Shown: positions 1 through 64,000 of the stretch, in pieces
Numbering within the stretch: the stretch's first letter is position 1
How the letters are laid out: each line of letters starts with the position of its first letter
Source: an uncultured Alphaproteobacteria bacterium
Lineage (GTDB): Bacteria; Pseudomonadota; Alphaproteobacteria; HIMB59
Direction: 5' to 3'
Assembly (NCBI GenBank): GCA_902538085.1
Contig: CACBDV010000001.1
Span: 43,766-107,765 of the forward strand
Length of the DNA: 64,000 nucleotides
The notes under the pieces: generated by a model
Databases searched by the model: none
Told to the model about the DNA's origin: nothing
What the model saw: the letters and a program-made list of their open reading frames with translations, nothing else
Made by a program: the position numbers and the translations under genes

Positions 1-2
1 CC

Positions 3-53
3 GAATCAATTAAAAGATTTAAAAAACTTATGCGTAAGAAGAAATTTGACTAA
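3..53 (+). CDS. rpsU: 3' end of a gene entering from the left, probably 30S ribosomal protein S21 (partial)
   Basis: Frame from position 3 reads [16 protein letters not shown]-stop (TAA 51-53), resembling the basic C-terminus of alphaproteobacterial bS21; only 16 codons visible. Confidence 0.5.
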
Positions 54-1441
54 TTCTCCAGTCCTTTAATTATATCTTCACAAACTTTCTTAGCATCTCC
101 AAATAACATCAAGGTGTTGTCTCGGAAAAATAATTCATTTTGAACACCTGCATATCCACTAGCCATACCTCTTTTAACGAAAAATACTTGTCCAGCATTT
201 TCTACATCTAAAATAGGCATACCATAAATGGCACTAGTCTTATCAGTTTTTGCAGCCGGGTTAGTTACATCATTAGCACCAATCACAAATGCAACATCAG
301 TCTCAGAGAAATCTCTATTAATTTCATCGAGTTCTAGAACTTCATCATAGGGAACATTTGCTTCTGCAAGTAACACATTCATGTGTCCCGGCATTCTACC
401 AGCTACAGGATGGATTGCGTATCTTACTTCTGCACCTGCAGCTTTAAGTAAATCACCCATCTCTCTCAGTGCGTGTTGTGCTTGAGCCACAGCCATTCCG
501 TAACCAGGAACTATGATTATTGTTTTGCTATTTTTCATCATAAATGCAGCATCAGCAGCGTTACCTTGTTTTGCTTGACGATCATCTTTGACTCCACTAG
601 CACTAGCTGCTTGTTCACCACCAAATCCTCCAAGCAAAACGTTTAAGAAAGATCTATTCATTCCCTTACACATTATGTAACTCAAGATAGCTCCTGATGA
701 CCCAACAAGGGCGCCGGTAATAATCAATAAGTTGTTGGATAAAGTAAAACCAATTCCGGCAGCGGCCCATCCAGAATATGAGTTTAACATTGAAACAATA
801 ACGGGCATATCCGCTCCTCCTATTGGAACAATTAATAGGACCCCGATAACAAATGAGGCAAAAACGATAAGCCAGAATAATTCTTGGTTTTGATCGATAC
901 AAAACTTAACAATTAAAGCAATAATACCTAAACCCAAAAGTAAATTAATAAAATGTTGACCTTTGAAAACTAAAGGATTTCCTGAGACAAAACCTTGGAG
1001 TTTTCCAAAAGCTATAATAGATCCTGTAAAAGTCACCGCTCCAATTGCTGTTCCAATTGACATTTCTATTAAACTTCCCATTGGAATAGATCCAACAGTA
1101 CCTATGTTAAAGGCACTAGGATTGTAATATGCAGAGGCAGCAACAAACACAGCAGCTAATCCAACCAAGCTATGGAAAGCAGCAACTAATTGTGGTAATG
1201 CAGTCATTTGAATTTTAACTGCGATGGATGTTCCAATCAAACCACCTATTAAAAAAGCTATTCCAATTTCTTTATAGCTTAGTACACCAGGATTAGACAA
1301 TGTTGTGACTATGGCTATAGCCATCCCTAATATTCCTAAAAAATTTCCTCTCCTTGCAGTGGAGGGATGTGATAACCCTCTAAGAGAAAGTATAAATAAA
1401 ACCGATGAAACTAAATATGCTGCAGTTGTTAAAGTTGACAT
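50..1441 (-). CDS. pntB: NAD(P)+ transhydrogenase subunit beta
   Basis: 463 aa; [56 protein letters not shown] motifs. Confidence 0.98.
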
Positions 1442-1448
1442 TTTTTAC

Positions 1449-1838
1449 CTATTGTTTCTTTTTAAACATGGAGAGCATTCGATTTGTTACAACAAACCCC
1501 CCAAATATGTTAACGGCAGCAAGAGTTACAGCAACTAAACCAAAATATTTAGAAATGTTACTATCAACAGGGCCTGCGGCCAATAAAGCTCCAACAATAA
1601 TTACAGACGAAATAGCGTTTGTGACACCCATTAAAGGGCTGTGTAAAGCAGGAGTAACCGACCAAACCACATAATAACCTACAAAACAAGCCAATACCAA
1701 AACAGTTATACCAAAAATAATAAAGTCACTATGGCCCCCAGATGTTTCGGCCACACTAGATGCTAACTGGCTTGCTTCATTTGCAATTTGTTGTGCCTTG
1801 TATGATAAATTTTCTAATTGATTTGAAATTTCTGACAT
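1449..1838 (-). CDS. pntA: NAD(P)+ transhydrogenase subunit alpha, membrane part (PntAb)
   Basis: [18 protein letters not shown] and [16 protein letters not shown] motifs; between pntAa and pntB (three-gene split arrangement). Confidence 0.95.
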
Positions 1839-1850
1839 AGTAACTCCTTT

Positions 1851-2966
1851 TTATTTTATTAAAATCTTTCCAGCTGAGCAAATCATTGTAGCTTTAATAA
1901 TTTCATCACTTTTATTAATCATAGATTTTTTCTTATCTTCAAAGTTCATTAATTTTAAAAAGTTAGAAATATTTTTTGAAAAAAGGCTTGAGGCATTATT
2001 TGCTACTCTGCCAGGAACGTTGGCATGACCTAGAATCTTAAGGCCATTTTTTGAAACGACTTTTCCAACTTGGCTAAATTCGCAGTTACCTCCAGATTCT
2101 ACAGCTAAATCAACAATAACTGAACCATTTTGCATGTTTTCCAACATTTCTTTTTTTAAAATTAAAGGTGCTTTTCTTCCTGGTATTTGAGCAGTACATA
2201 TTACAATATCCATTGTTTTTAAAGTTTCGGCCAATAAAGCTTCTTGTTTTTTTTGATACTCGGCACTCATTTCTTTTGCATAACCACCCTTTGTTTCAGC
2301 ATTCTTGGACTCCTCATCCTCGACCATAACAAATTTACCACCAAGACTCTCAACTTGCTCTTTTGAGGCTATTCTTACGTCTGTAGCAAAAACAATAGCA
2401 CCTAATCGTTTAGCAGTTGCTATAGCTTGTAAACCTGCAACACCTGCACCTATGACTAAAACATTTGCCGGAGTAACTTTACCAGCAGCCGTCATAAATA
2501 ATGGTAATACTCTGTTAAATTCTTGAGCAGCATCTATAACCGCATGATATCCAGCTAAGTTTGCTTGAGAGGACAAAATATCCATATCTTGAGCTCGAGT
2601 AATTCTTGGGACTAATTCTAAAGCAAACGCTGATATTTTTTTAGAATTTAAAATTTTAATACTGTCTTGGTTGTTCTGTATACTGATTTGCGAAATAACC
2701 ATTGAGTTATTTTTAATTAGTCTAGACTCGTCTGGGGTTGGGCAATTTATTTTTAAAATAATATCAGAATTCTTAAAAACTTCTTTTGAAGTAGATAGAC
2801 TCGCTCCAGACTCTCTATACGATTTATCATTAAAACCTGAAAGTGAACCTGCCCCCTTTTCAATAAATACTTGGTGACCGGCTTTTACATAGTTTTTTAC
2901 ATCATCAGGGGAAATAGAAACTCTATTTTCAAACTTTTTTTTCTCTTTAACTGCACCTATTATCAT
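1851..2966 (-). CDS. pntA: NAD(P)+ transhydrogenase subunit alpha, soluble NAD-binding domain I (PntAa)
   Basis: PRITRAQDMDILSSQANLAGY, GAGVAGLQAIATAKRLGA, GGYAKEMS, DLAVESGGNC. Confidence 0.96.
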   Translation of the reverse strand: MIIGAVKEKKKFENRVSISPDDVKNYVKAGHQVFIEKGAGSLSGFNDKSYRESGASLSTSKEVFKNSDIILKINCPTPDESRLIKNNSMVISQISIQNNQDSIKILNSKKISAFALELVPRITRAQDMDILSSQANLAGYHAVIDAAQEFNRVLPLFMTAAGKVTPANVLVIGAGVAGLQAIATAKRLGAIVFATDVRIASKEQVESLGGKFVMVEDEESKNAETKGGYAKEMSAEYQKKQEALLAETLKTMDIVICTAQIPGRKAPLILKKEMLENMQNGSVIVDLAVESGGNCEFSQVGKVVSKNGLKILGHANVPGRVANNASSLFSKNISNFLKLMNFEDKKKSMINKSDEIIKATMICSAGKILIK

Positions 2967-3060
2967 TATTGTTCCTTTTAGAAGGTATGTTGTATATCAG
3001 ATAAATCTAATTTGTTAAGTCTAAGATTTATAAAATTTATTAAAAATTTGTTCAAAGTAT

Positions 3061-4389
3061 TCATAAACCGGCAAATTTGAATGCTTTTTTTTGATTGGTT
3101 TCAACATTTTTTACTGAAAAATCTTTAATTAAGTCATGAAAAAGCTTGTACCAATTTATTTCAGCCCTCAAATGAATGAAGATTGACCCCAAACCAACCG
3201 CTGCTCGATCCATAAATACAAACTCTCTTGGAGGTTTAACTCCTCCATATTTTTTAAGTTCTTTGTGGACTTCACTAGCTATTTTAGCTCCATAGATACC
3301 ACTATCTGAGTCTTGTATTTTTCGGACCTCATTCTTTAAAATTGGATCATACAAGAATAAAGCCCATTTATTTAAAACATTCATTAATTTATCATCAATG
3401 TCTTTAAACCCCCATACTTGATAAGCGGTTTTTATCTTTTTATTATCTTTTTCTTTTAGGGCAAAATAAAGGTCAATTACGCCTTTAACAAACTTAGGTG
3501 GAAATATCCTTACGCAGCCATAATCAAATAAATTAATATTATTTTTATTATCTACTGAGTAATTACCTAAATGTGGATCTCCATGAATTATACCGTATTT
3601 ATAAAAGGGTAAGTACCATGCCATAAATAATTTTTTTGCTAATTCATTTCTAGTTTTTTGTGGTGCATTTTTGTATTCAATTAATTTTTTACCATTAAGA
3701 AATTCCATTATTAAAAGTCTGTTAGTAGATATTTTTTCGTAAACATTTGGGATTTTTATATATGTGTTATTTTTATGAATAAATTTAAATATTTTTAAAT
3801 GTTTGTTTTCTAAACTATAATTTAATTCTTCTTTTAGTCTTGCTTCTATTTCTTTATAGATCTCTCTAATTTGAATTGATTTATTATAACTAGAGTAAAT
3901 TTTAAATATTATTTTAAGTTGGTTTAAGTCAGCTTCTACTGCTGAAGACATATCAGGATATTGAAGTTTACACGCAACATAATCATTGGTTTTCAATTTG
4001 GCCTTATGTACCTGACCTAAAGAGGCAGCAAAACTTGCCTCTTGATTGAATTCTTTGAAATTATTTTGCCAATTTTCACCTAATTCAGCTTTCATTCTTC
4101 TTTTTACAAACACCCAAGACATCGGAGGTGCATTTGACTGTAATTCAGCTAATTTTCTAGAATACTCTTCAGGCAGTAAATCAGGAATAGTGGCGCTTAG
4201 TTGTGCCACCTTCATCAAAGGTCCTTTTAAATTGCCTAAAATCTCTGTGATTTGAGCCGCGTACTTTTGATCACTCAAATCAAAATTTAAATATTTTTTT
4301 CCTGCAAATTTAGTAGCTAAAGAAGTCATGGAAGTTGTGACTTTTGAGTACCTTTTCACTCTTGATACTAGATTATTTTCTTCTTTCAT
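3061..4389 (-). CDS. AarF/ABC1/UbiB family atypical kinase
   Basis: LKGPLMKVAQ, AASLGQVH, KLQYP, HGDPHLGN, DYGC motifs. Confidence 0.92.
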   Translation of the reverse strand: MKEENNLVSRVKRYSKVTTSMTSLATKFAGKKYLNFDLSDQKYAAQITEILGNLKGPLMKVAQLSATIPDLLPEEYSRKLAELQSNAPPMSWVFVKRRMKAELGENWQNNFKEFNQEASFAASLGQVHKAKLKTNDYVACKLQYPDMSSAVEADLNQLKIIFKIYSSYNKSIQIREIYKEIEARLKEELNYSLENKHLKIFKFIHKNNTYIKIPNVYEKISTNRLLIMEFLNGKKLIEYKNAPQKTRNELAKKLFMAWYLPFYKYGIIHGDPHLGNYSVDNKNNINLFDYGCVRIFPPKFVKGVIDLYFALKEKDNKKIKTAYQVWGFKDIDDKLMNVLNKWALFLYDPILKNEVRKIQDSDSGIYGAKIASEVHKELKKYGGVKPPREFVFMDRAAVGLGSIFIHLRAEINWYKLFHDLIKDFSVKNVETNQKKAFKFAGL

Positions 4390-4395
4390 TTTAAG

Positions 4396-6147
4396 CTAGA
4401 TACTTTTTTCAAACTCATCTATTAGACCTGAAATCATTGAGAGTCCTTTCTCCCAACTATTTTTTTGTTTGAGATCCACATTAAATGGTTTCAAAACTTC
4501 ACTATAGTGTTTCGAGCCACCACTTTTTAAAAGATTAATGTAACTTTCCTTAAAATTTGGTAGGCCTTCATCATAAAGTTGAATCAAAATATTTACTAAA
4601 CAATCTCCAAAAGCGTATGCATATACATAAAAAGGAGTATGAATAAAATGAGGTATGTATGTCCAAAAATATTTATAACCATCTGTTAATTCAATATTAG
4701 GACCAAGACTTTCTGATTGTGTTTTCATCCAAAAATCACAAAGTTGATCAGATGATAACTCTCCTTTTTTTCTCTCATTGTGAACTAACTTTTCAAATTC
4801 AAAAAATGATATTTGCCTGATAACAGTATTAATCATGTCCTCTATTTTTGATGCAAAAAGATATTTTCTGGCACTCTTATCACTATCTTCAAGTAGTGTT
4901 CGAAAAGTCATCATCTCTCCAAAAACACTTGCTGTCTCTGCTAGAGTAAGAGGAGTGCTTGATAACAATAAACCTTGTTTAGCAGACAAATATTGGTGAC
5001 ATCCATGTCCAAGTTCATGAGCTAATGTCATTACATCTCTGGTTTTACCGTGGAAGTTTGTCAAAATGTAAGGGTGAATTGAAGGAATTGTAGAAGCTGC
5101 AAATGCTCCTGGAGATTTACCTGATTTTAATTCTGCATCAATCCAACTGTTATTAAAAAATAATAATACAATATCTTTAAAACTTTTATCAAAGTTAGCA
5201 TATGAGCGGATTACAATATCTTTTGCCTCAGACCAATTTATTTTTTTATTAGGTGAATCAGGATAAGGCGCATTTCTATCCCAATAATTAAGTTTTTCTT
5301 GATTAAAAAGTTTGGCTTTAATTTTATAGTATCGATGTGAAATATTCTTGTAATTGGAAGTAACACTTTCAGTTAGTGCCTCAACGACTTCATTTTCAAC
5401 ATTATTCGCTAAATTTCTTGAGTCTGTTGGAGATTTATATTTTCTCCACTTATCATTAGTAATTTTATCTTTTGCGAGAGTGTTTGTAATAAATGAAAAA
5501 GTTTTTACATTCGATTTAAAAACATCTTCAATACTTTTAGCTGCTTTTTTTCTGGTAGTTGCATTATGATCAGATAATAAATTTAAAGCTTCTGAACTAT
5601 TTAAATCTTTATCATCGATTTTAAATTTTAAATCGTTTATTTGTTCTTCAAAGAATCTCACCCATGAAGAGTTAGAGGTTAAATTCTTATCAAGGAAAAT
5701 CATCTCACTTTTTTCATCAAGTTGATGTTGTTTATATCGACGAATATTAATTAACCAATTTTTATATTTGCCAGCATTTGATAAAAATATTTCAAATTCT
5801 TGGTCATTTGTAGCATTTATTTCGTTTGTAAAAAAAATCAAGTTTGATGATATCTCTGTAAGTTTTTCATTTATACCTTGATAGAATTGAACCGTCTCTT
5901 GGTCGTTCATATTTGTTGCGTATATCAAAAAAGCGAAATTTCCAATCTTGTCACCAAGTTCATTACCGTCTTCATACTCTTTAATGGTGCTTTCGAGATT
6001 TTGAGCTTGATTAACTAATTGACCTTTATATTTTTTGTTGAAAGATTTAGAAAAATTTCTATATTTTTCCAGATCAAGATCAATTCCTTCGTCTTTTATA
6101 GAAGAGTAAAAATCTCCTAAATTCCAGTTCGGCAATTTTTCAGTCAT
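4396..6147 (-). CDS. pepF: M3B family oligoendopeptidase F
   Basis: TLAHELGH zinc motif, LAETASVFGE, HTPFYVYAYAFG. Confidence 0.93.
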   Translation of the reverse strand: MTEKLPNWNLGDFYSSIKDEGIDLDLEKYRNFSKSFNKKYKGQLVNQAQNLESTIKEYEDGNELGDKIGNFAFLIYATNMNDQETVQFYQGINEKLTEISSNLIFFTNEINATNDQEFEIFLSNAGKYKNWLINIRRYKQHQLDEKSEMIFLDKNLTSNSSWVRFFEEQINDLKFKIDDKDLNSSEALNLLSDHNATTRKKAAKSIEDVFKSNVKTFSFITNTLAKDKITNDKWRKYKSPTDSRNLANNVENEVVEALTESVTSNYKNISHRYYKIKAKLFNQEKLNYWDRNAPYPDSPNKKINWSEAKDIVIRSYANFDKSFKDIVLLFFNNSWIDAELKSGKSPGAFAASTIPSIHPYILTNFHGKTRDVMTLAHELGHGCHQYLSAKQGLLLSSTPLTLAETASVFGEMMTFRTLLEDSDKSARKYLFASKIEDMINTVIRQISFFEFEKLVHNERKKGELSSDQLCDFWMKTQSESLGPNIELTDGYKYFWTYIPHFIHTPFYVYAYAFGDCLVNILIQLYDEGLPNFKESYINLLKSGGSKHYSEVLKPFNVDLKQKNSWEKGLSMISGLIDEFEKSI

Positions 6148-6152
6148 CTAAA

Positions 6153-6446
6153 CTATTTTTTTTTAAATTGTTCTATTTGTTCTTTTGTTGCTTCTGATTG
6201 ATATTTACTTTTCCATTCAGAGTAAGCCATTCCATAAATAATCTTTCTTGATTCCTCATAGTCTAGATCATAGTTTTCCTCTTTTGCATATTTTACATAC
6301 CATTTTGATAAACAATTTCTGCAAAATCCACTAAGATTCATCAAGTCAATATTTTGTACATCAGTCCTATCTCTTAAATGATTAATTAAATGATCAAGCA
6401 CGTTAGCTTTAATTTTGTAATCTTGTTCTTTTGATATTTTACTCAT
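6153..6446 (-). CDS. DUF1244 family protein
   Basis: RTDVQNIDLMNLSGFCRNCLSKWY and IYGMAYSEWK signature; near pyk as in other alphaproteobacteria. Confidence 0.88.
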   Translation of the reverse strand: MSKISKEQDYKIKANVLDHLINHLRDRTDVQNIDLMNLSGFCRNCLSKWYVKYAKEENYDLDYEESRKIIYGMAYSEWKSKYQSEATKEQIEQFKKK

Positions 6447-6493
6447 GGTAATTTACTAATATCATGTTATTTATTAATTTCTAAACAAATCAA

Positions 6494-7930
6494 ATGAAAC
6501 TTAGAAACCGTAAAGCCAAAATTGTTGCAACATTAGGACCAGCCTGTGAGACTGAAAAAGCTATTGAGAAATTATTTTTATCTGGCGCTGACGTATTTCG
6601 TCTTAATTTTAGTCATGGTGACCATGAGGATCACAAAAAAAAAGTTAAAATTATTCGAAATTTAGAAAAAAAACATGATCGTTATATTTGTATTTTAGGT
6701 GACTTACAGGGTCCCAAATTCAGAGTTGGTAGATTTCTAAATGTCAAAGAACAACTAAAAAAAAACCAAATATTTACTTTTGATCAAAATAAAAAAGACG
6801 GTGATAGTTCTCGAGTCTACTTGCCTCATAAAGAAATTTTCAAATCTATAGCAATCGGACAAAGGCTGTTAGTGAATGATGGTAAGGTAAGGTTAAAAGT
6901 AAAATCAAAATCTGCTTCTGCAATTAAATGCGTTGTAACAGATGGTGGAGAAATTTCTAATAACAAAGGATTGAATATTCCAGATACTAAACTTGATTTA
7001 AAAATAATTACTCCAAAAGATAAAAAGGATTTAGAGCTAGCTATTAAACTTGATGTTGATTGGATTGCTCTTTCATTTATTCAAACCACAAAAGATTTAT
7101 TAACAGCAAAAAAACTTATTCCTGCAAAATTTAAAGTAATGGTTAAAGTAGAAAAACCTTCTGCTATGGAAGAAATTGAGTCGATAACTGAAAATTCTGA
7201 TGGAATAATGGTTGCTAGAGGAGATCTGGGTGTTGAAACCAACCCAGAAGATGTGCCAATTCATCAAAGAACAATGGTCGCTGCTTGCAGGAAATATGGA
7301 AAGCCATGTATTGTTGCAACCCAAATGCTTGAGAGTATGATTGACTCACCTACTCCAACAAGGGCTGAAGCCTCTGATGTCGCTACAGCAGTATTTCAAG
7401 GAGTAGACGCTGTAATGTTATCTGCAGAGTCAGCTGCTGGTAATTATCCCAAAGAGTCTGTAGAAATGATGGATAAAATAATTAAACGTGTAGAAAGTGA
7501 TCCTAAATATTTAGCTAATATTCAAAATTATAATTTGAATATTGTAAAAACATCAACAGAGGCAATTGCTACTGCAGCACTTGAAGTAGCTACCATTGCT
7601 GAATGCAATTGTATTGCAACATTTTCTCAATCAGGAAGATCTGTTTTAAGAGTCGCAAGGATGAGGCCTGATGTGACCTTAATAGGACTAACAACTAATA
7701 AAAAAGTTGCTCGTCAAAATGCCTTAACTTGGGGTACTTTTATGGATGTTGTAGATGAAATTTCATCGTCAACTGAGATGGTTGACCGTGCCTGTAAAAT
7801 AGCAAAATTAAGAAAAATTTTAAAACATGGTGAAAAAATAATAATCACAGCTGGAGTGCCTTTTGGAAAAGTTGGAAATACCAATATTCTTCGTATAGCT
7901 AAAATTATTTCTGAGAGTAAATTAACTTAA
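6494..7930 (+). CDS. pyk: pyruvate kinase
   Basis: KIVATLGPA, RLNFSHG, DLQGPK, MVARGDLGVE, ATQMLESM, PTRAEASDV, MLSAESA. Confidence 0.98.
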   Translation: MKLRNRKAKIVATLGPACETEKAIEKLFLSGADVFRLNFSHGDHEDHKKKVKIIRNLEKKHDRYICILGDLQGPKFRVGRFLNVKEQLKKNQIFTFDQNKKDGDSSRVYLPHKEIFKSIAIGQRLLVNDGKVRLKVKSKSASAIKCVVTDGGEISNNKGLNIPDTKLDLKIITPKDKKDLELAIKLDVDWIALSFIQTTKDLLTAKKLIPAKFKVMVKVEKPSAMEEIESITENSDGIMVARGDLGVETNPEDVPIHQRTMVAACRKYGKPCIVATQMLESMIDSPTPTRAEASDVATAVFQGVDAVMLSAESAAGNYPKESVEMMDKIIKRVESDPKYLANIQNYNLNIVKTSTEAIATAALEVATIAECNCIATFSQSGRSVLRVARMRPDVTLIGLTTNKKVARQNALTWGTFMDVVDEISSSTEMVDRACKIAKLRKILKHGEKIIITAGVPFGKVGNTNILRIAKIISESKLT

Positions 7931-9118: not shown

Positions 9119-9165
9119 TTTTTTTATTTAGTTATCTATAAACTTATTTATAAATTTCTACAAGT

Positions 9166-46342: not shown

Positions 46343-46856
46343 TGAAAAAATAACATTTAAACAAATAAATATTGCTGTAATCACTTTGTCGGATACAAGA
46401 AAAGAAAGTGATGATAAATCAGGTAATACATTAAAAGAACTTATACAAAAAAAAGGACATTCTGTTTCCCATTATCAGATTATTGAAGATGAACCTAAAC
46501 TCTTTATTCCTATTATTCAGAAATTAACAGCATCTGTCGAACACGATGTAATAATCACTTCAGGTGGGACTGGTCTGACGGGAAGAGATAATACTATTGA
46601 TGCCTTAAAAAAAATATCTCAAGTTGAAATTCCAGGATTTGGAGAATTGTTTAGACAATTAAGCTATAAAAAAATTGGAACCTCAACTATACAATCTCGA
46701 GCGAGTGCATTTTTATTAAATCAAACTTACATCTTTTGTTTACCTGGATCTACTTCTGCTGTTAGAGATGCTTGGAATGATATTCTTTTTCATCAATTAG
46801 ACATAAGACACAAGCCATGTAATTTTGTCGAACTAATACCTAGACTTGATGAGTGA
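46335..46856 (+). CDS. moaB: molybdenum cofactor biosynthesis protein B
   Basis: TLSDTR, DKSG, GGTGLTGRD, PGFGELFR, QSRA, LPGS. Confidence 0.95.
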   Translation: MIDEKITFKQINIAVITLSDTRKESDDKSGNTLKELIQKKGHSVSHYQIIEDEPKLFIPIIQKLTASVEHDVIITSGGTGLTGRDNTIDALKKISQVEIPGFGELFRQLSYKKIGTSTIQSRASAFLLNQTYIFCLPGSTSAVRDAWNDILFHQLDIRHKPCNFVELIPRLDE

Positions 46857-47451
46857 ATATGTTGTTGGAGTCGACGAGGTTGGCAGAGGATCTCTTGTTG
46901 GAAGTGCAATAATTTGTGCTTTCAGATCACAAAATTCCTTATTTGATAAACTTCCATTTAGTGTCTCTGATTCAAAAAAAATAAATAAAAAAAAAAGAGA
47001 GGAAATATATGAATATTTTAGATTAAATAAAGGTTTCGAATATAATTATCAAATTATTTTTGGAAAAAAAAAATTTATTGAAAGATTTAATATTCACAAT
47101 GTAGTTTTGCAAAGCATGAAACAATCGATAATTTTGTTGTCAAAAAAGTCAGATACGATCATCATAGATGGAAAATTTATTCCAAGCGAAATGAAAGGTT
47201 ATAAGGTGAAGTCTTTAATTAAAGCAGATGATAAAATTAATCAGGTGTCAGCAGCTTCAATTATAGCAAAAGTCTTCAGAGACAAATTACTTCTGAAACT
47301 CCACTCATTTGATGGTAATTATCAATGGAATAAAAATGCTGGGTACGGTACAAAGTCTCACTTAAGCGCTATTTATACACACGGGGTCAGCAAATATCAC
47401 AGGACCACTTATCAACCTATAAGTAAACTTATCAAAAAGTTATCTACTTAG
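46846..47451 (+). CDS. rnhB: ribonuclease HII
   Basis: GVDEVGRG, DSKK, IDG, AASIIAKVFRD, GYGTKSH. Confidence 0.95.
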   Translation: MMSEYVVGVDEVGRGSLVGSAIICAFRSQNSLFDKLPFSVSDSKKINKKKREEIYEYFRLNKGFEYNYQIIFGKKKFIERFNIHNVVLQSMKQSIILLSKKSDTIIIDGKFIPSEMKGYKVKSLIKADDKINQVSAASIIAKVFRDKLLLKLHSFDGNYQWNKNAGYGTKSHLSAIYTHGVSKYHRTTYQPISKLIKKLST

Positions 47452-47484
47452 TTATCAACAGTAGAGTATGTTTTTTTTACACAA

Positions 47485-47508
47485 GATTCTTTATAAATAT
47501 TAAGATTC
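47485..47508 (+). promoter_or_regulatory. two GATTC (CcrM-type) sites in the ccrM leader
   Basis: GATTC at 47485-47489 and 47504-47508, both in AAGATTC context, within 28 bp of the GTG start. Confidence 0.6.
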
Positions 47509-47512: not shown

Positions 47513-48577
47513 GTGTTGAAATCAAATAACCTATATTTAGGTGATTGTCTTGATCTATTAGCTAAAATTGAAGATCAGACAATTGATTTAATTTTCTTAG
47601 ACCCTCCTTATAATTTACAATTAAACAAAGTTTTAACTAGACCAAATCATTCCATTGTCAATGGTGTCAAACAGGATTGGGATAAATTTGATAGTTACTC
47701 GAGTTATGATGATTTTACCTATTCTTATTTAACTGAATGTAAAAGAGTTCTTAAACCTGATGGGGGATTATGGATTATTGGTTCGTATCATAATATTTTT
47801 AGAATTGGAAAAATTCTCCAAGATTTAAACTTTTGGATTTTAAATGATGTGATTTGGGCCAAATCTAACCCGTTACCAAATTTTAGGGCAACTAGACTTA
47901 CTAATGCGCATGAAACTCTTATTTGGTGTTCAAAAAAACCTAAATCTAAGTATCAATTTAATTATCATACTTTAAAGGTTGCAAATGAAGACAGACAAGA
48001 GAGAAGTATTTGGAACTTCCCAATTTGTTCAGGTAAAGAAAGGCTGAAAAACAATAAAAACCAAACAGCTCACCCAACTCAAAAACCCTTAGCTTTGATG
48101 AAAAAAATTATTATTCAGTCATCGATACAAGGAGATCTAGTACTAGAACCTTTTGCAGGCACAGCAAGTTTCTGTGCTGAAGCAAAATATTTGGGTAGAA
48201 ATTACATAGGTTTTGAAAAAGATGATGGTTATTTTAATTTAGCAATTAAAAGATTAAAAAAAATTAAATCTTTAAAAAATGATTTATTAGAGATTAATGA
48301 AAAAGATAAACCTATACAAAAAATACCCTTTGCAAGTTTAATTGACAATGGGCATTTAAAGCCAGGTGCTAAACTATATAACAATAAGAAAAGCTATAAA
48401 GCTACAATTTTACCAGATGGAAGTATTTCATATAAAAATGAGAGAGGATCAATTCATAAAATTGCTGCAAAAGTAAATAAGACATCGAGTTTCAATGGAT
48501 GGGATTATTGGCATTATGAGGATAAAAAAAAGAATTTAATATGTATCGATGAAATTAGAAAAAAGATGAGGAGTTAA
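47513..48577 (+). CDS. ccrM: cell-cycle-regulated adenine DNA methyltransferase (beta class, CcrM family)
   Basis: DPPYNLQL, IGSYHNIFR, NAHETLIW, HPTQKP, C-terminal GSIHKI...NGWDYW domain; rnhB-ccrM-mutY synteny; no cognate endonuclease. Confidence 0.95.
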   Translation: MLKSNNLYLGDCLDLLAKIEDQTIDLIFLDPPYNLQLNKVLTRPNHSIVNGVKQDWDKFDSYSSYDDFTYSYLTECKRVLKPDGGLWIIGSYHNIFRIGKILQDLNFWILNDVIWAKSNPLPNFRATRLTNAHETLIWCSKKPKSKYQFNYHTLKVANEDRQERSIWNFPICSGKERLKNNKNQTAHPTQKPLALMKKIIIQSSIQGDLVLEPFAGTASFCAEAKYLGRNYIGFEKDDGYFNLAIKRLKKIKSLKNDLLEINEKDKPIQKIPFASLIDNGHLKPGAKLYNNKKSYKATILPDGSISYKNERGSIHKIAAKVNKTSSFNGWDYWHYEDKKKNLICIDEIRKKMRS

Positions 48578-49572
48578 TTTAATATTCTTTTAAAGAGTGT
48601 TGGTAATGCAAGCTGGTTAGTTTTTGATTTTTCTATCCATACTGAATTGTTAATTTTTAATTTTTTCAGATTAAGTTTATAAACATTTATTTGGAAGAGA
48701 TTATTTGTAATTGTAAATTTAAAACTTTTGATTTTTTCTTTATTTTTTAAATTTAAATTTGCTATAAATTCTTTGTCCAAATTTGAGGGCAAATGGATAA
48801 AGTTTTTGTAAAATTGAAATTTTGGTTTTTTTATAAAACAAATATGTAAAGGAGAGTTTATTAAATAGAAATCTATTTCCTTATTATTTTTTTTTACATT
48901 TTTATTATTTTTAAATGATTGGAAAGCTGATTTACAAAAACTAGAAAATATGCATTTGGAGCATTCGGGGCTATTTTTTTTGCAAATAATAGAGCTATAA
49001 TCCATCATCGACTCAGCTAAACTCCTATAAGAAATCTTTTTTTTACAAGCTAAACTAATTATTTCTTCGATCTCATCATCATTGAGTTTGAAACCAGATA
49101 GTCTCTGTATTAATCTTTTAACATTGATATCAACTGGGAATGATTTTTTATTATGGCCGATAGCTAATATCGCGCTTGAAGTATATTTCCCAACACCAGG
49201 CAAAGAGATAAGACTATCTCTATCGTCTGGTAATTTACCATTATAGCTATTGTTAATAATTGTTACTGCTTTGAATAAATTCTCTGCCCTCTTGTAATAA
49301 CCTAATCCTGACCAAACTTTTAATAAATGTTCTAATCTTTTATTCTTAAAGGAATTAAAACTTGGAAAAATATTTATAATTTCTAATATTTTATTTTCTA
49401 CTGTTTTAACAGTTGTTTGTTGTAGCATAATTTCTGATAAATAAGTTAAGTATAAATTTCTATTCCTTCTCCAATATAAGTTTCTTTGATTTTTTTTAAA
49501 CCAATGTAGGATTAAAGGGATAAATTTGTTTTTATGAAAAAGTTCTCCAAGCTCAATGATATTGCTTTTCAT
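48574..49572 (-). CDS. mutY: A/G-specific adenine glycosylase
   Basis: SEIMLQQT, WSGLGYY, LPGVGKYT HhH, VDINV, C-x6-C-x2-C-x5-C Fe-S motif. Confidence 0.92.
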   Translation of the reverse strand: MKSNIIELGELFHKNKFIPLILHWFKKNQRNLYWRRNRNLYLTYLSEIMLQQTTVKTVENKILEIINIFPSFNSFKNKRLEHLLKVWSGLGYYKRAENLFKAVTIINNSYNGKLPDDRDSLISLPGVGKYTSSAILAIGHNKKSFPVDINVKRLIQRLSGFKLNDDEIEEIISLACKKKISYRSLAESMMDYSSIICKKNSPECSKCIFSSFCKSAFQSFKNNKNVKKNNKEIDFYLINSPLHICFIKKPKFQFYKNFIHLPSNLDKEFIANLNLKNKEKIKSFKFTITNNLFQINVYKLNLKKLKINNSVWIEKSKTNQLALPTLFKRILN

Positions 49573-55407: not shown

Positions 55408-55478
55408 CAACTTTAACCACCACTGTTTTAAATAAGTATCTTTATCTATCACAATTTAAACTCTAAAATTAACTATAA

Positions 55479-56860: not shown

Positions 56861-58090
56861 TTCAGCTGTTTCAAGGTTTTCAATAGGACCTATTGATGAC
56901 AGAGTCAAATTTGAGTCTAATATTTTTTTTCTTGCTTTTTCAAGGTCCTCTAATTGCACAGAGTCAATCTTCGAAATAAATTCATCGAGAGATCTAACTT
57001 TATTGTGCATTAAATAACTAGAAGCGTTAGATCTACATCTCGTTGAGATACTTTCCTCTCCTTTTAGAATTCCCACTTTAAATTTAGCCTTAGTCTTCGT
57101 TAATTCCTCCTCAGTAAAGGTATTAGCATTAATATTTAATTGATCGCATAGTACGGGTATTAATTCTTTAACTTCCTTGTGCCCTGTGCCGGCATAGACA
57201 TAAAAAATACCTGAGTCAGAAAAGAAATCACCACTACTGTATATGCTATAAACCAATCCTCTTTTTTCTCGAATTTCTTGAAATAATCTCGAAGACATAC
57301 CAGAGCCAAGAAGTGTTGAATAAACTCTTGTTGCATAGTAAAGGTCTGAATGAATATCTACACCCTCAAAACCTAGTAACAACTTTACCTGTTCTAAATT
57401 TTTCTCTTGACGGTATTCTCCACCAACATAAGAAGATTTTGGAATATAATCGTCGTCGCCATGAGGGAGATTTTGGAATTTCTCCTCAACAAGTTTAATT
57501 ATTTTATCCTCTTCAAAATTTCCTGATACAGAAAAAACCATTTTTTTTGGGTTATAGAATCCTTTCATAAAACTCTCAACTTCATCCCTTGATATAGACT
57601 TTATAATTTCAGCCGTACCTAAAATTGACCTACCCATGGGTTGGTCAGGGTAAGCTAACTCGTCGAATTTATCAGCAACAATACTATCTGGCTCATCAGC
57701 ATACATTCCAATCTCTTGTAATATGACGCCTCTCTCTTTATCGAGTTCCTTAGAGTCAAAAGTTGAAAACTGTAATATATCGCTAATTACGTCTATGGAT
57801 AGTTCAACATTTTCCTTTAAACCACTCATGTAATAAGCAGTTATTTCTCTTGAAGTATAGGCATTGTGAGAATTACCTACTAGCTCAACCTCTTTTGCTA
57901 TTTGAGCAGCTGATCTATTTTTTGTTCCTTTGAATGCCATGTGCTCTAATAAGTGAGCAACACCATTAATTTCTTTTCGCTCATTTCTTGCCCCGACCTT
58001 GTTCCACATTCCTACACTTACTGTTTCTACGGTGTTTACATAATCTGTTATCAAGGTCATTCCATTTTTAAGCTTATGAATATTAGGCAT
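56837..58090 (-). CDS. M16B family zinc peptidase (MPP-like)
   Basis: HLLEHMAFKGT (HxxEH), NAYTS, SSRLFQEIREKRGLVY. Confidence 0.95.
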   Translation of the reverse strand: MPNIHKLKNGMTLITDYVNTVETVSVGMWNKVGARNERKEINGVAHLLEHMAFKGTKNRSAAQIAKEVELVGNSHNAYTSREITAYYMSGLKENVELSIDVISDILQFSTFDSKELDKERGVILQEIGMYADEPDSIVADKFDELAYPDQPMGRSILGTAEIIKSISRDEVESFMKGFYNPKKMVFSVSGNFEEDKIIKLVEEKFQNLPHGDDDYIPKSSYVGGEYRQEKNLEQVKLLLGFEGVDIHSDLYYATRVYSTLLGSGMSSRLFQEIREKRGLVYSIYSSGDFFSDSGIFYVYAGTGHKEVKELIPVLCDQLNINANTFTEEELTKTKAKFKVGILKGEESISTRCRSNASSYLMHNKVRSLDEFISKIDSVQLEDLEKARKKILDSNLTLSSIGPIENLETAELVKRRLS

Positions 58091-59435
58091 GTGCTTCTAT
58101 GTAATCTCCTAGTTCCTTGTAATTGTTGTCTAAAATTGCAAATTTTTCATCATTAAGAAATTCTATGTTTTTATCATATTTTACATTGTTGCCTAATGCC
58201 TTTTGGACAGTTTCCTGAAATTTTACTGGATGGGCACAAGCAAGACACATTGCTTTTTTTAAATTTAATTTTTCTGCACATACTATGCCAACAGCTGTAT
58301 GAGGGTCTAATAAAATTTTATAATTTTCATATGTGATTTTAATTTGATTTTCAACCTCTTTAGAAGTTGCACTCTCAGATAAAAATTTCTCAGATAATAA
58401 CTTATGAATAGAACTTTCTAATTTTTTGTTATGTTCATTGTTTTGTATATTTTGAAAAAGCTCATTTGTTGCTCCTGGTCCAAGAAGCTCTGCTAAAAGT
58501 CTTTCAAAATTACTTGATATTGTTATATCCATGCTAGGGCTATTAGTTTTTACAACATTGTAAAGATGTAGATCATTATTACTTATAATTCGATGTAAAA
58601 TATTATTCTCATTTGTCGCAACAATTAACTTATTTATTGGAAATCCCATTGACTTTAGCAAATGAGCAGAATATATATTTCCAAAATTGCCACTTGGTAC
58701 AACAAAATTATCAATATTATGATTAAGATATGACCATGCATAATAAATTGATTGAGGTAGCACCCTAAACCAATTAATTGAATTCACTGCAGTAAAGCTA
58801 TATTTATTATTTATATCTTTATCTCTAAAAAGTTTTTTTACTAAATTTTGACAATCATCAAAACTTCCATTTAGGGCAATATTAAAAACATTTTTACCTC
58901 CACTAGTTGTCATTTGTTTTCTTTGGAAGAGAGATGTGGAGTTATGAGGGTGTAAAATAAAAATACTAATATTTTCAATATCTTTAAAGGCTTGAATTGC
59001 AGCAGAACCGGTATCGCCAGAAGTTGCTCCGATAACTACTAATTTTCTATCTAGTTTCTTTAAATAGTATTCATATATCTTAGCTAACAAACACATAGCA
59101 TAATCTTTAAAAGCTAGTGTCGGACCATGAAATAAATTTAATAGATCGTTGTCACCTATGTTAGATATTGAAACAATTTCTTTGTCAAATTTACAATATG
59201 CCTCTTCGATAATCTTTTCAATTATTGGGGCTTCAAATAAATCTGATAAAAAAGGGGTTAAAATAAAATTTGCTATTTCAAAATAATTTTTTCCTTTTAA
59301 TGCATTTATTTGATTATTACTAAATTTTGGAATTTTATTTGGAATAAATAGACCTCCATCTGGTGCTAGACCGAAATTGAGTACCTGCTCAGCAGAGTAC
59401 TCTTTTTTATCATCTCGCGTGCTTATATATTTCAT
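58083..59435 (-). CDS. thrC: threonine synthase
   Basis: YISTR, GLAPDGGL, FHGPTLAFKD, ATSGDTGSAA, VPSGNFGN, SPSMDI, DPHTA. Confidence 0.96.
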   Translation of the reverse strand: MKYISTRDDKKEYSAEQVLNFGLAPDGGLFIPNKIPKFSNNQINALKGKNYFEIANFILTPFLSDLFEAPIIEKIIEEAYCKFDKEIVSISNIGDNDLLNLFHGPTLAFKDYAMCLLAKIYEYYLKKLDRKLVVIGATSGDTGSAAIQAFKDIENISIFILHPHNSTSLFQRKQMTTSGGKNVFNIALNGSFDDCQNLVKKLFRDKDINNKYSFTAVNSINWFRVLPQSIYYAWSYLNHNIDNFVVPSGNFGNIYSAHLLKSMGFPINKLIVATNENNILHRIISNNDLHLYNVVKTNSPSMDITISSNFERLLAELLGPGATNELFQNIQNNEHNKKLESSIHKLLSEKFLSESATSKEVENQIKITYENYKILLDPHTAVGIVCAEKLNLKKAMCLACAHPVKFQETVQKALGNNVKYDKNIEFLNDEKFAILDNNYKELGDYIEAHA

Positions 59436-60871
59436 TTAACAAATCTATCAACCAAATGATCTAAATAATATTTTGAGTTTAAATTCTCACCAGAAATGCT
59501 TTGTAACATTTCATCAGATGAATATAAAGAGGCTTTTTGATGGATATTAGTATTTAACCAAATGATTAAATTATTTATATTTTCTTCATTAGGGTTGTCT
59601 AAAAAAATATCAAATAGAGGACAATTATATTTAATTTGTGAGGCTATCATAGCACCAAGTGCATAAGTAGGGAAATAACCAAATATACCTTCATACCAAT
59701 GAATATCTTGGAGAACCCCCTCTGTTTCTGAAATTAAGTTGATTGACAAATTATTTAAATAGTTTTCGTTCCATAAATTTTTAATATCTTTAAAGTAAAT
59801 TTTATTTTTAAATATCTCTTTTTCAATTTTATACCTGATGTAAACATGGATCGGGTAAGAAAATTCATCAGCACTAACCCTTATAGGATTAACTCTCACA
59901 GTATGATAGTGCTCTAAAAACGATTTTTCCAAATCTTTAGAGTTATCAAAAATATTGTTTATAATTTTAAAATAAACCTTTGATTTAAAGATATGATTTT
60001 CAAAAAAAAGAGATTGGCTTTCATGGACGCTTAAACTACGAGATTGACCCAATGGCTCATAAAGATATTCATTAGGTCGATTCTGCTCATAAACTCCATG
60101 GCCTGTCTCATGAAATAATGCTGATAAGGACTCTAGTATATTGTCTTCAAACCTGGTTGTTATCCTTACATCATTTGTAGCTCCGCCACAAAAAGGGTGA
60201 TGAGATTGATCAATTCTACCTCTATCAAAATCAAAGTTGAGTTGTTCTAATTTTACTTTCACCATTTTTAATATTTCTGAGTCTGAAATATTTGATTTAT
60301 AAATATGAGGTGATTTAATTTTTTTTATATCCAAATATTTAGGTATTATTTCTCTCTCAATTACTGAAAAAAATTTGTCTATCTTTGATGAGTCATAATC
60401 CATATCATATTTTGAAATTAATGAGTCATAAGGTGATAGATTAGTTGCTTTAGCTAATTGACTAGCTTCCTCATGTACTAAATCTAATAAATCATTGAAA
60501 TCTTTTTCAATGACCGAAGAATCATTTTTTGATCTAGCCTCTCTCCATAAATGCTCACAAGTTAGTTTTTTTTTTATCAGTAGAGATTTCAAATCTGGGT
60601 CAATAGCATTTTCTTTGACGATAATATTCTTCATTAATTTTAAACACATGCTATCTGCCTCGCTTAATTTTGTATTTTCAGCTTTTTGAATTTCTTCTTG
60701 AATATCTTCGCTTCTAAATATTCTATCAGTAAAGTTAGATAAAATAGACATTTGCTCTGATCTAGACTCAACACTTTTTTTTGGCAAATTAGTTGCATTA
60801 TCCCAAAATAAAAGACCACTGACATCATTCAAAACATAGTAGCTTTTAAAATACTCTTTAAGTTTATTCAT
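59432..60871 (-). CDS. M32 family carboxypeptidase (Taq-like)
   Basis: HPF, DVRITTR, HETGH, HESQ, IRVSADE, GVLQDIHW, GYFPTY. Confidence 0.95.
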   Translation of the reverse strand: MNKLKEYFKSYYVLNDVSGLLFWDNATNLPKKSVESRSEQMSILSNFTDRIFRSEDIQEEIQKAENTKLSEADSMCLKLMKNIIVKENAIDPDLKSLLIKKKLTCEHLWREARSKNDSSVIEKDFNDLLDLVHEEASQLAKATNLSPYDSLISKYDMDYDSSKIDKFFSVIEREIIPKYLDIKKIKSPHIYKSNISDSEILKMVKVKLEQLNFDFDRGRIDQSHHPFCGGATNDVRITTRFEDNILESLSALFHETGHGVYEQNRPNEYLYEPLGQSRSLSVHESQSLFFENHIFKSKVYFKIINNIFDNSKDLEKSFLEHYHTVRVNPIRVSADEFSYPIHVYIRYKIEKEIFKNKIYFKDIKNLWNENYLNNLSINLISETEGVLQDIHWYEGIFGYFPTYALGAMIASQIKYNCPLFDIFLDNPNEENINNLIIWLNTNIHQKASLYSSDEMLQSISGENLNSKYYLDHLVDRFVK

Positions 60872-61535
60872 ATTTTCTTCTTATAATTAACAGCATAACG
60901 ATACTTGACAAGCTAAGCAAAAACCAAGTTATTGAATAATTCAAATGATTATTTCTCAAAAATACAAGAGGATTAAAGGTATATTTAGATACCCTATCAT
61001 CTAGCAGAACAAAATAATATTTGGATAGGAATGTATATTGATAAAACTGACTAAAATCAGTTTTATTAACAGAGTACCAAGTATTATTGGATAAATCATT
61101 CTCTGGGGTAAAAAAAGGTTTATCTGAATTAAAGTCTCTTATGTATACCTTAGGGTTGTCGATTGATTGATATCTTTGAATGATATTTTGAACTTGATCT
61201 ACATCTTTGTCTAAAAACCATCCAAAATTAATGACACTATATATACTATTTTTGTACTTTACCGGAAGTATTAGGTGATAACCTGGTTTTCCTTTAAATG
61301 TTTTTGACTCTAAATAAATTGGTTTGTTTAGAATTGTATAATTATCATCTAATTTTACTGTAACTAAATTATTGTAATTCAGATCATCTGAAAACAAAGT
61401 GGGATTGAGAATTGAATTACGAATATTATCCATTAAATCATTTTTCCAATTTAGTCGGTAAAGTTGCCACGAACCTAAGATAAAGGTTAAAATAGAAATT
61501 CCTATAAATACAAATGTTAATGATGACTTATTCAT
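60864..61535 (-). CDS. surf1: SURF1 family cytochrome oxidase biogenesis protein
   Basis: LGSWQLYRLNWK, NNHLNYSITWF; cox operon position. Confidence 0.92.
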   Translation of the reverse strand: MNKSSLTFVFIGISILTFILGSWQLYRLNWKNDLMDNIRNSILNPTLFSDDLNYNNLVTVKLDDNYTILNKPIYLESKTFKGKPGYHLILPVKYKNSIYSVINFGWFLDKDVDQVQNIIQRYQSIDNPKVYIRDFNSDKPFFTPENDLSNNTWYSVNKTDFSQFYQYTFLSKYYFVLLDDRVSKYTFNPLVFLRNNHLNYSITWFLLSLSSIVMLLIIRRKYE

Positions 61536-61578
61536 AAATAAAAATTTAGTTTAAATGTAAAAGATAAAAATCTTTGGA

Positions 61579-62421
61579 TTATCTTCCCCACCAATAGATA
61601 CTTATGTATAAAAACAACCAAACAACATCAACAAAATGCCAATACCATGCAGCTGCTTCAAAACCAAAATGTCTTTTTGGGGTTAAATGACCTTTTCTTA
61701 TTCTCAATAAACAGACTAATAAAAACAAAGTACCTATTAATACATGAAAGCCGTGAAAACCGGTTGCCATGAAAAAAGTTGAAGGATATATACCTTCAGT
61801 AAAACCAAAAGTTGCATGTTGGTATTCATATATTTGTAAAAGTGAAAATATGAAACCTAAAAAAACCGTGTAATATAATCCTTTAAGAGCCTCTTTATTA
61901 TTACCCTCTCTTAATTCATGGTGTGCCCATGTACAAGTAGTGCCTGATAAAAGTAAAATTAAGGTATTTAAATATGGGATGTCTAGTGGGTCAAAAGTTT
62001 CAATTCCTTTTGGGGGCCAAACTCCTATTCCAAGAGAGCCTGTGAAAACTTCTTTGTACTCAGCTAAAAATGTTTTAGGTAATAGACTTGCATCGAAAAA
62101 AGCCCAAAAGAAAGCGACAAAAAACATAACTTCTGATGTGATGAACAGAGCCATACCCCACCTAAGACCAATCTCAGTGATTGAATTATGTACTTTCAAA
62201 AAAGTACTCTCTTTTATTATGTCTCGCCACCACATAAACATAGTAAAAAGTATTAGAACAAGACCTGCCAACATAGGCCATAGCATCTCATAGTGCATAT
62301 ACAAAATAGCTCCTGAAACTAGAAAAAGAGCTGAAAAAGCACCAACTAATGGCCAGGGACTGGGATTTACAAGATGAAATTTATGTTTCTTTTCAGAGTC
62401 TTTAAATACTAAATCAACCAT
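61579..62421 (-). CDS. ctaE: cytochrome c oxidase subunit III
   Basis: FHLVNPSPWP, SEVMFF, ATGFHGFHV, AAWYWHFVDVVW. Confidence 0.98.
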   Translation of the reverse strand: MVDLVFKDSEKKHKFHLVNPSPWPLVGAFSALFLVSGAILYMHYEMLWPMLAGLVLILFTMFMWWRDIIKESTFLKVHNSITEIGLRWGMALFITSEVMFFVAFFWAFFDASLLPKTFLAEYKEVFTGSLGIGVWPPKGIETFDPLDIPYLNTLILLLSGTTCTWAHHELREGNNKEALKGLYYTVFLGFIFSLLQIYEYQHATFGFTEGIYPSTFFMATGFHGFHVLIGTLFLLVCLLRIRKGHLTPKRHFGFEAAAWYWHFVDVVWLFLYISIYWWGR

Positions 62422-62433
62422 CTAAACAATATT

Positions 62434-62970
62434 TCATTCTTTTTTCTCAAAAAAGGTATATGACAAAGTGACATTCTTCGTCCTACTTGCCTCGGGATCG
62501 TCAAGTATCAATGGATCTAAGTAGAAAGTGACAGGAAACTCAACAACTTGATTTGGTTTTATGGTTTGATCAATAAAGCAAAAGCATTCAATCTTATATA
62601 GGTATGGGCCAATTTTAGGTGGTAAAATGTTAAATATAGACGTACCTGTTGTGCTAACATTAGTATTGTTTTTAGCTTTAAAAACAACATCATACTTTAC
62701 ACCCTCTGTAATAATCATTTTTTGAGGAGCTTCGAACATCCAGTCCAAACCTTCATTTACCTGAGCTGAAAATATAACTTTTATATCAAGTTCCCCCGAG
62801 TTGATATTTTGGTGTTGTTCTTGAATTTTAACTTCTTTGTTAAAACCTTGAAATCCAGTTAGGTCACAAAAAAGCTTATATAGTGGCACAGAAAAAATTA
62901 CTAGACTTAGCATAAATCCAAGTATCAACATTAAAAAAATTAATGTTTTGTTTTTATTTGATACGTTCAA
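62434..62970 (-). CDS. ctaG: cytochrome c oxidase assembly protein Cox11/CtaG
   Basis: VPLYKLFC, KIECFCF, TLSYTFF. Confidence 0.96.
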   Translation of the reverse strand: MNVSNKNKTLIFLMLILGFMLSLVIFSVPLYKLFCDLTGFQGFNKEVKIQEQHQNINSGELDIKVIFSAQVNEGLDWMFEAPQKMIITEGVKYDVVFKAKNNTNVSTTGTSIFNILPPKIGPYLYKIECFCFIDQTIKPNQVVEFPVTFYLDPLILDDPEASRTKNVTLSYTFFEKKE

Positions 62971-63068
62971 ATACCAGATTTAATTCTAAATATTGTAATA
63001 AAATAAAATGCTGTTACGAGCATGAAAAGTAAAGCCAAGACTAATAAATTTTTATTTTTTCTTTTCAT
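62967..63068 (-). CDS. 33-aa single-TM protein between ctaB and ctaG (CoxF-like), absent from the ORF track
   Basis: MKRKNKNLLVLALLFMLVTAFYFITIFRIKSGI; ATG overlaps the ctaB stop (TAATG) and TGA overlaps the ctaG TTG start. Confidence 0.75.
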   Translation of the reverse strand: MKRKNKNLLVLALLFMLVTAFYFITIFRIKSGI

Positions 63069-63994
63069 TAGAATAAATATTTATCAATAACTGTTAAAGT
63101 GAAAATAAGAAACAGATACACAATTGAATATCCAAAAAGTTTAATTGATTCTTTCTTAGTATTTTGTGACTTATTAAGTTTAAAAAGTTTGTAAATAAAA
63201 TATGCATTGAGAAGATTGGAGCCTAAAAAAAAGCTCATTCCAGCGTATTTAAAGAAATATAAAGAGTTTACTGATGCAACCATTAAAAGAGTATAAATAT
63301 TCATCATAAAAATTGTTTTTTTTATGCCGTGTTTAACGGGGTACATCGGTATATCAGCGTCAGAGTAATCTTGGTTTCTAAATATAGCTAATGCCCAAGA
63401 GTGTGGAGGTGTCCATAAAAATATTATTAAGCATAATATTAACGGGTAGAAAATTTGTTCACTTGAAATACTTATCCATGCAATCACTGGAGGGAGAGCA
63501 CCTGCTAAACCGCCAATTACTATATTCTGTGCAGTTTTGTGCTTCAGATACATTGTATAAAAAACAGAGTAATAAAGAATTGTAAATGCTAATAAGATTG
63601 AGGCCTTAATATTTCCAAAGAAAAATAAACCTACTACAGAAAAAAAAGAAAAAATTAATCCAATACCCAGTGCTGTATTTGCTGAGATATTTCCTGAAGG
63701 AATAGGTCTAAACTTTGTTCTATCCATTTTAGAGTCAATTATTCGATCAAACCACATGTTTAAAATAGCTGAACCAGATGCTCCCATTGCTATAAGGGTA
63801 AGAGTCATTCCTTTTATAAATAAACTTTTATCAGATGGGGCTAATAACATCGCACATAAAGCCGTAAATATTACAAGAGAGATTACACCAGGTTTAATTA
63901 GTACATAAAGTTGTTTTAAAAAATTAACAACTTGCAAAAAGAACAGGTTTTGTTCTGTCTGTACAAAAGTTTGATGATGCTTTTTTTCTAACAC
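63068..63994 (-). CDS. ctaB: protoheme IX farnesyltransferase (heme o synthase)
   Basis: NMWFDRIIDSKMDRTKFRP, QNIVIGGLAGALPP, WTPPH. Confidence 0.96.
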   Translation of the reverse strand: MLEKKHHQTFVQTEQNLFFLQVVNFLKQLYVLIKPGVISLVIFTALCAMLLAPSDKSLFIKGMTLTLIAMGASGSAILNMWFDRIIDSKMDRTKFRPIPSGNISANTALGIGLIFSFFSVVGLFFFGNIKASILLAFTILYYSVFYTMYLKHKTAQNIVIGGLAGALPPVIAWISISSEQIFYPLILCLIIFLWTPPHSWALAIFRNQDYSDADIPMYPVKHGIKKTIFMMNIYTLLMVASVNSLYFFKYAGMSFFLGSNLLNAYFIYKLFKLNKSQNTKKESIKLFGYSIVYLFLIFTLTVIDKYLF

Positions 63995-64000
63995 AAATTA

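Follow-up and report, generated by a model that had tools for sequence, protein, structure and literature searches.

The window analyzed here, a 64,000-nucleotide stretch of an uncultured alphaproteobacterium (C1:43766-107765 of a 1.25-Mb, 29-contig assembly with a GC content of 30.3%), carries a ccrM orthologue on its forward strand (47513-48577, 354 aa), and is poor throughout in GAATC and GATTC (GAWTC, W = A/T) and rich in GAGTC and GACTC (GASTC, S = G/C). The ccrM product combines an N6_N4_Mtase domain (PF01555 at 1e-59, residues 24-245) with a C-terminal RAMA domain (PF18755 at 1.9e-14, residues 269-351), and aligns end to end with the Caulobacter CcrM (6PBD, E-value 1e-109, reaching residue 353). 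Its match to the NCBIfam CcrM equivalog NF050803 is full-length but divergent (489.6 bits, under the cut-off of 830). The DPPY motif aligns with D31-Y34 of CcrM, and in the loop that follows DPPYNLQL the residues L38-G39-G40-D41-L42 of CcrM are replaced by L-N-K-V-L, which places a lysine at the Gly40 position.

From a hand scan, the initial annotation had estimated ~80 GASTC and 35-40 GAWTC sites in the window, and had argued that base composition predicts the reverse ratio. Both statements hold: exact counting returned 84 GASTC (48 GAGTC, 36 GACTC) and 39 GAWTC (20 GAATC, 19 GATTC), against zero-order expectations from the base composition of the window (29.3% GC) of ~50 and ~121, respectively, i.e., 2.4:1 in favor of GAWTC. 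The nine GASTC positions it had quoted (4441, 7178, 7343, 7427, 7454, 18181, 37801, 44351, and 56961) are likewise exact. Under a third-order Markov model, the observed/expected ratio (O/E) in the window was 0.41 for GAWTC and 1.42 for GASTC, and the same skew extends over the assembly as a whole (603 GAWTC, 1621 GASTC), with O/E of 0.22-0.37 and 1.46-1.74, respectively, under zero- to third-order models. At third order, GAWTC had the lowest O/E of all 1024 5-mers in the assembly (0.37, next lowest 0.78) and GASTC the highest (1.46, next highest 1.27). This confirms that the window-wide avoidance of GAWTC, with its accompanying surplus of GASTC, is real and very strong.

To take the encoded proteins into account, synonymous codons were shuffled within each of the 1219 long open reading frames (ORFs) called in the assembly, which together represent 93% of its length. 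In the frame GAN-TCN (hyphen marking the codon boundary, hereafter frame 0), GAATC was observed 132 times for 614.8 expected (O/E 0.21) and GATTC 127 times for 665.7 expected (O/E 0.19). The two other frames held 270 GAWTC for 786 expected (O/E 0.33-0.35), so that the total over all frames was 529 for 2067 expected (O/E 0.26, z = -50). GASTC behaved differently according to frame: GAGTC and GACTC were in marked surplus in GAS-TCN (589 observed vs. 299 expected, O/E 1.97, and 608 vs. 219, O/E 2.78, respectively), as against 334 vs. 367 in the two other frames (O/E 0.81-1.16). The surplus in frame 0 (+679) covers the entire coding surplus (+647; all coding frames, O/E 1.73, z = +24). The window alone gave the same picture (500 shuffles), with 15 GAW-TCN for 71.8 expected, 18 GAWTC for 41.8 in the remaining frames, 66 GAS-TCN for 29.2, and 19 GASTC for 18.5 in the remaining frames, and none of the shuffles was as extreme as the observed sequence for the first three of these classes. 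Both kinds of null model that the initial annotation had proposed, Markov and codon-shuffled, thus return a strong depletion of GAWTC and a surplus of GASTC, and the codon-aware ratios depart from 1 for both classes. Since the GASTC surplus is confined to frame 0, it is a by-product of synonymous escape from GAWTC, with no signal of its own.

The codon choices behind this pattern are as the initial annotation had described them for Glu-Ser and Asp-Ser. Across the assembly, glutamate is encoded by GAG in 82% of cases before a codon starting with TC (31% overall, and at most 51% before any other dinucleotide), and aspartate by GAC in 83% of cases before TC (22% overall). The pyk gene provides an example on the forward strand (7178-7458), with GAG-TC at 7178, 7427, and 7454 and GAC-TC at 7343, all four in frame 0 and encoding IES, AES, KES, and IDS, respectively. 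Conversely, the share of TCN among serine codons falls from 73% overall to 26-28% after GAA or GAT. The switch to GAG or GAC before TC and the drop of TCN after GAA or GAT indicate that both synonymous escape routes are in use. The shifts in codon choice before TC amount to log-odds of 2.3 and 2.85 which, in a mutation-selection-drift reading, would imply a per-site selection well above that ordinarily acting on codon usage.

The depletion of GAWTC is not restricted to the escape frame. It is found in the two other coding frames, as seen above, and in the non-coding DNA of the assembly (O/E ~0.42-0.48), which indicates that the pressure acts on DNA rather than on translation. All 16 flank contexts of NGAWTCN are depleted (O/E 0.10-0.41), and thus nothing points to an extended flank motif that would betray a reader. 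GAWTC counts per 5-kb window are near Poisson (variance 2.66, mean 2.42), which means that the genome is depleted evenly over its whole length, and none of the 467 windows pointed, beyond chance, to an un-ameliorated (horizontally acquired) region of normal GAWTC density. GAWTC is therefore selected against at the DNA level, genome-wide.

The sites that remain are somewhat denser outside genes (0.78/kb vs. 0.46/kb inside). Nineteen of the 71 GAWTC sites outside ORFs sit in tRNA genes, and the T-loop word TTCGAWTC occurs in 16 of 30 tRNA genes (e.g., C2:239218-239291 and C3:36180-36253). Once these tRNA sites are removed the density outside genes is ~0.6/kb, so that the intergenic enrichment is modest. 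Structural RNAs would thus form a reservoir of obligatory methylation sites. Intergenic GAWTC clusters were also considered as regulatory candidates and rejected, as regions with at least two sites number nine for a Poisson expectation of 8.6. Among the four close intergenic GAWTC pairs, two lie inside tRNA genes and one upstream of the 16S rRNA gene, and the only one left standing is the pair in the leader of ccrM.

This pair consists of two GATTC sites on the forward strand, at 47485-47489 (28 nt before the ccrM start) and 47504-47508 (9 nt before the start), spaced by 19 bp within the 61-bp spacer between rnhB and ccrM. Both are kept in all close relatives. Each of the 21 clade loci examined carries the downstream site, and the upstream one is retained, despite diverged flanks, down to 73% CcrM identity (as GAATC in locus L021, lost in L011). 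In relatives with 73-75% CcrM identity, the sequence between the two sites has diverged and a third leader site appears at -48. No GASTC was found in the ccrM leaders of these 21 loci, although few loci were compared and an AT bias would by itself favour W. The Caulobacter ccrM promoter carries two GANTC sites, and the leader sites seen here could plausibly act as a similar autoregulatory switch, in this case responding to GAWTC methylation. The frame of ccrM opens with GTG then TTG (47513-47518), and neither a Shine-Dalgarno-like sequence nor a sigma-70 consensus promoter was found in the 61-bp spacer. Where the gene actually starts and from which promoter it is read are uncertain, and it may be transcribed together with rnhB.

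A separate feature lies just upstream, at the 3' end of rnhB (47409-47459), where three exact TTATC[AT]AC words and a fourth reading TTATCAAA occur within ~50 bp. This is the sole cluster of at least three TTATC[AT]AC words within 120 bp in the whole assembly, and it is conserved in relatives with an otherwise diverged ccrM leader. The word resembles a DnaA box (TTATCCACA), and the cluster may represent a regulator-binding array for ccrM.

The genes flanking ccrM are rnhB, which encodes RNase HII (46846-47451, forward strand, directly upstream), and a convergent mutY-like gene for an HhH-GPD glycosylase (48574-49572, reverse strand; TIGR01084 mutY at 4e-56, below cut-off). Neither is a restriction enzyme, and no endonuclease gene thus adjoins the methylase. 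Among 80 alphaproteobacterial loci (Pelagibacteraceae, Hyphomicrobiales, Marinicaulis, Methyloligella, and others), rnhB lies immediately 5' of ccrM in 75 and the mutY-like neighbour is syntenic in 57. The conserved rnhB-ccrM order identifies the gene as the vertically inherited orthologue, outside any restriction-modification pair. Within the assembly, PF01555 matched only the window CcrM, no C5 methylase was found, and marginal matches to PF02086 and PF02384 were identified as RsmD and PrmC rather than DNA methylases, so that profile searches of the assembly returned no DNA methylase besides CcrM. A GcrA homologue is encoded at C2:238731-239201 (PF07750, 111.7 bits, over cut-off; NCBIfam, 98 bits, below the cut-off of 280).

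Next to the Caulobacter crescentus enzyme (M.CcrMI, 6PBD), the window protein shares domain architecture, DPPY motif, orphan status, a GcrA homologue in the genome, and a ccrM leader with a pair of target sites. It differs in the loop (Asn-Lys instead of Gly39-Gly40) and in motif I (EPFAGTASF, vs. DPFFGVGTT in the aligned 6PBD chain) and, whereas the Caulobacter enzyme targets GANTC, avoidance in the focal genome is confined to the W half of that motif.

The closest CcrM genes (89-98% identity) come from marine single-cell genomes labelled as uncultured Alphaproteobacteria or Pelagibacteraceae, and the CcrM of a genome labelled HIMB59 is 73% identical. Comparisons across these genomes are illustrative rather than independent tests, as the genomes are mutually related. 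Other genomes of the focal clade, in which the loop (CcrM positions 39-40) reads NK or NR at all loci, display the same GAWTC depletion, with a GASTC surplus in frame 0 only. In a sister family (G019, G029; loop KD), GAWTC depletion is weaker (M1 O/E 0.46-0.65) and GASTC approximately neutral. The Pelagibacteraceae (loops KK, KN, KS, or QN) deplete GAWTC and not GASTC, with a shift from GAA/GAT to GAG/GAC before TC (0.47-0.56 vs. 0.15-0.19). A pooled GASTC O/E of ~2 in their loci was set aside, being inflated by a cluster of sites in the ccrM promoter and by stop-to-stop ORFs. Loci from other Alphaproteobacteria, with mostly Gly-containing loops, differ from the focal genome in that both classes are depleted (O/E 0.44-0.82 altogether, with 0.46-0.82 for GAWTC and 0.44-0.54 for GASTC). 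Finally, a genome of the same order without a CcrM orthologue (G020, 93% complete, 27% GC) had O/E of 0.82-1.12 for GAWTC and 0.78-1.12 for GASTC, with little codon skew. Its only comparable gene (G020:C1:114873-115604, L098) encodes a 272-aa N6_N4 methylase devoid of RAMA domain, with 37% identity and a loop reading DPPYFLSNGG. CcrM appears to have been lost within this order, a situation comparable to that of the methylation-free SAR11 MAG in the literature, and G020 serves as a natural control that ties the skew to the presence of the enzyme.

The initial annotation had cautioned that narrower CcrM variants might already have been reported, and rightly so, as both the enzyme type and the skew were published in 2022. 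In SAR11 and Rhizobiales metagenome-assembled genomes (MAGs), GAWTC rather than GANTC is methylated, GASTC being almost unmethylated (Hiraoka et al., 2022, NAR 50:1531, PMC8919816). Four CcrM homologues (M.PspCM15mP30I, M.PspCM15mP70I, M.AspCM15mP57I, and M.RspCM15mP111I) fully blocked TfiI and only partly HinfI, in the very assay that the initial annotation had suggested for the window enzyme, and all GAWTC-type enzymes have Lys or Asp in place of Gly40 (PMC8919816). The same study reported MAG log2 O/E of -1.73 for GAWTC vs. +0.43 for GASTC, a contrast that holds over 195 SAR11 genomes with the lowest values in a subclade V group, and O/E near 1 in a SAR11 MAG without methylation system (PMC8919816). 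Under-representation of GANTC in CcrM-bearing Alphaproteobacteria has also been reported (reference 77, as cited in PMC8919816), and the focal genome resembles these in avoiding its presumed methylase target genome-wide, at a density somewhat higher outside genes. The focal genome falls within the range published for SAR11 (log2 O/E of ~-1.4 to -2.2 for GAWTC and +0.55 to +0.8 for GASTC), and its enzyme, like those assayed, is an orphan CcrM-type methylase of the SAR11 lineage sensu lato with Lys in place of Gly40. The GAWTC-type CcrM and the genome skew are hence already known for this lineage and, with phenomenon and enzymology both published, the value of the present analysis is one of confirmation plus mechanistic refinement. 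What is new is modest, namely the codon-frame dissection, the selection estimate, and the conservation of GAWTC sites ahead of ccrM. The paper notes a reduced pressure on GASTC, and its main text, from which the word “synonymous” is absent, is silent on escape at the synonymous or codon level (PMC8919816). The codon-frame dissection adds this escape as an explanation for the positive GASTC O/E.

Taken together, CcrM has probably narrowed from GANTC to GAWTC, with the genome skew as its consequence. The corresponding proposal of the initial annotation, a GAWTC target with which the genome has co-evolved, is supported in that each of its predictions at the sequence level holds, namely depletion in all frames, in non-coding DNA, and in all flank contexts, a surplus limited to the escape frame, a CcrM with Gly40 changed to Lys as the sole DNA methylase found, and the lack of skew in the relative without the enzyme. 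The genome most likely belongs to a HIMB59-like lineage, the former subclade V of SAR11, and its one orphan adenine methylase is a vertically inherited CcrM, which in this scenario would methylate GAWTC and largely ignore GASTC, like the characterized SAR11 homologues. Where the protein sequence permits (Glu-Ser and Asp-Ser encoded as GAW-TCN), the site is removed by changing the central base to G or C, or the serine codon to AGY, and the former route creates the GASTC surplus as nothing more than a by-product. GAWTC survives where it is constrained or used, for instance in tRNA T-loops and at the two conserved ccrM leader sites.

Some alternatives leave methylation out of the selective pressure altogether or give it another role. 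A translational codon-pair bias, a mutational context effect, or positive selection for GASTC would account for the largest absolute effects being at GAN-TCN codon pairs. However, the depletion of GAWTC is just as marked in both remaining frames and outside coding DNA, no excess of GASTC is seen beyond the escape frame, both words stand at the extremes of all 5-mers under a third-order Markov model that absorbs context, and the CcrM-less genome of the same order, at 27% GC, shows no such effect, which leaves this the least probable of the readings considered. Almost as improbable is avoidance of a GAWTC-cutting (TfiI-like) endonuclease, own or a competitor's, to which the lineage is or was exposed, with the methylase as its partner. 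CcrM-type enzymes are related to the HinfI-family methylases, and avoidance of short palindromes is a classical response to restriction. Against this, the neighbours of the methylase gene are rnhB and a mutY-like gene, an arrangement common to Alphaproteobacteria, no second DNA methylase was found in the assembly, the depletion is uniform over the genome and missing from the CcrM-less relative, and a methylated genome is protected from its cognate enzyme.

A more serious, if still unlikely, alternative is that the enzyme methylates all GANTC, and that a downstream agent such as the GcrA homologue, which the focal genome does encode, or another DNA-binding protein reacts to (hemi)methylated GAWTC only, so that selection removes the W sites. 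Several observations weigh in this direction, or more generally temper the enzyme-level explanation. The GAWTC specificity of the 47513-48577 enzyme is one that we infer from its sequence, and its likeness to the published enzymes is one of described features. The assembly has an estimated completeness of only 86%. Reverting Lys or Asp to Gly left specificity unbroadened (PMC8919816), so that residue 40 is a correlate and no proven determinant, and the single Methyloligella locus, with a QK loop, still depletes GASTC (2 observed vs. 14.4 expected). In Pelagibacteraceae, a preprint reports 99.86% of GANTC as fully methylated in Pelagibacter NP1, yet the loci of this family avoid only GAWTC, as the focal genome does. 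Their ccrM loci (L033-L092) moreover carry three to four GANTC sites ~30-105 nt upstream of ccrM, whose positions about a TTGAC box are constant. Two of these sites always read GAGTC and two vary among GACTC, GAGTC, GAATC, and GATTC, which hints that SAR11 proper has a switch that reads GANTC. In the focal clade, by contrast, the ccrM leader sites are W only, the similar depletion in all 16 flank contexts gives no hint of an extended-motif reader, and SAR11-lineage homologues with Lys or Asp at position 40 discriminate at the enzyme level, with GASTC almost unmethylated in the MAGs (PMC8919816). For this clade, the published assays and the Lys40 signature thus favour specificity of the enzyme over that of a reader.

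The Pelagibacteraceae discrepancy nevertheless suggests that avoidance and enzyme specificity may not be strictly coupled, given the reported GANTC-wide methylation in NP1 alongside GAWTC-only avoidance. Should both be true, the property selected against in that family must be something other than methylation alone. It is thus tempting to speculate, on a long shot, that across SAR11-like lineages it is not methylation itself but a W-specific agent (a reader, a nuclease, or an interaction with replication or repair) that drives the avoidance. If true, the narrowing of the enzyme in the focal clade would be a secondary adaptation to this agent and not the cause of the skew, and the discrepancy is the sole lead here that could grow into something new.

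With enzyme narrowing as the preferred reading, the refinement offered by these data is mechanistic, in that the GASTC surplus reflects escape rather than function, and pairing the codon-frame test with the residues of the loop provides a simple predictor of CcrM specificity from sequence only. More broadly, this is a clean, textbook-grade illustration of how a methylase can leave its mark on codon choice through its target, in which one 5-bp word reverses the glutamate and aspartate codon preference of a genome at one dipeptide context.

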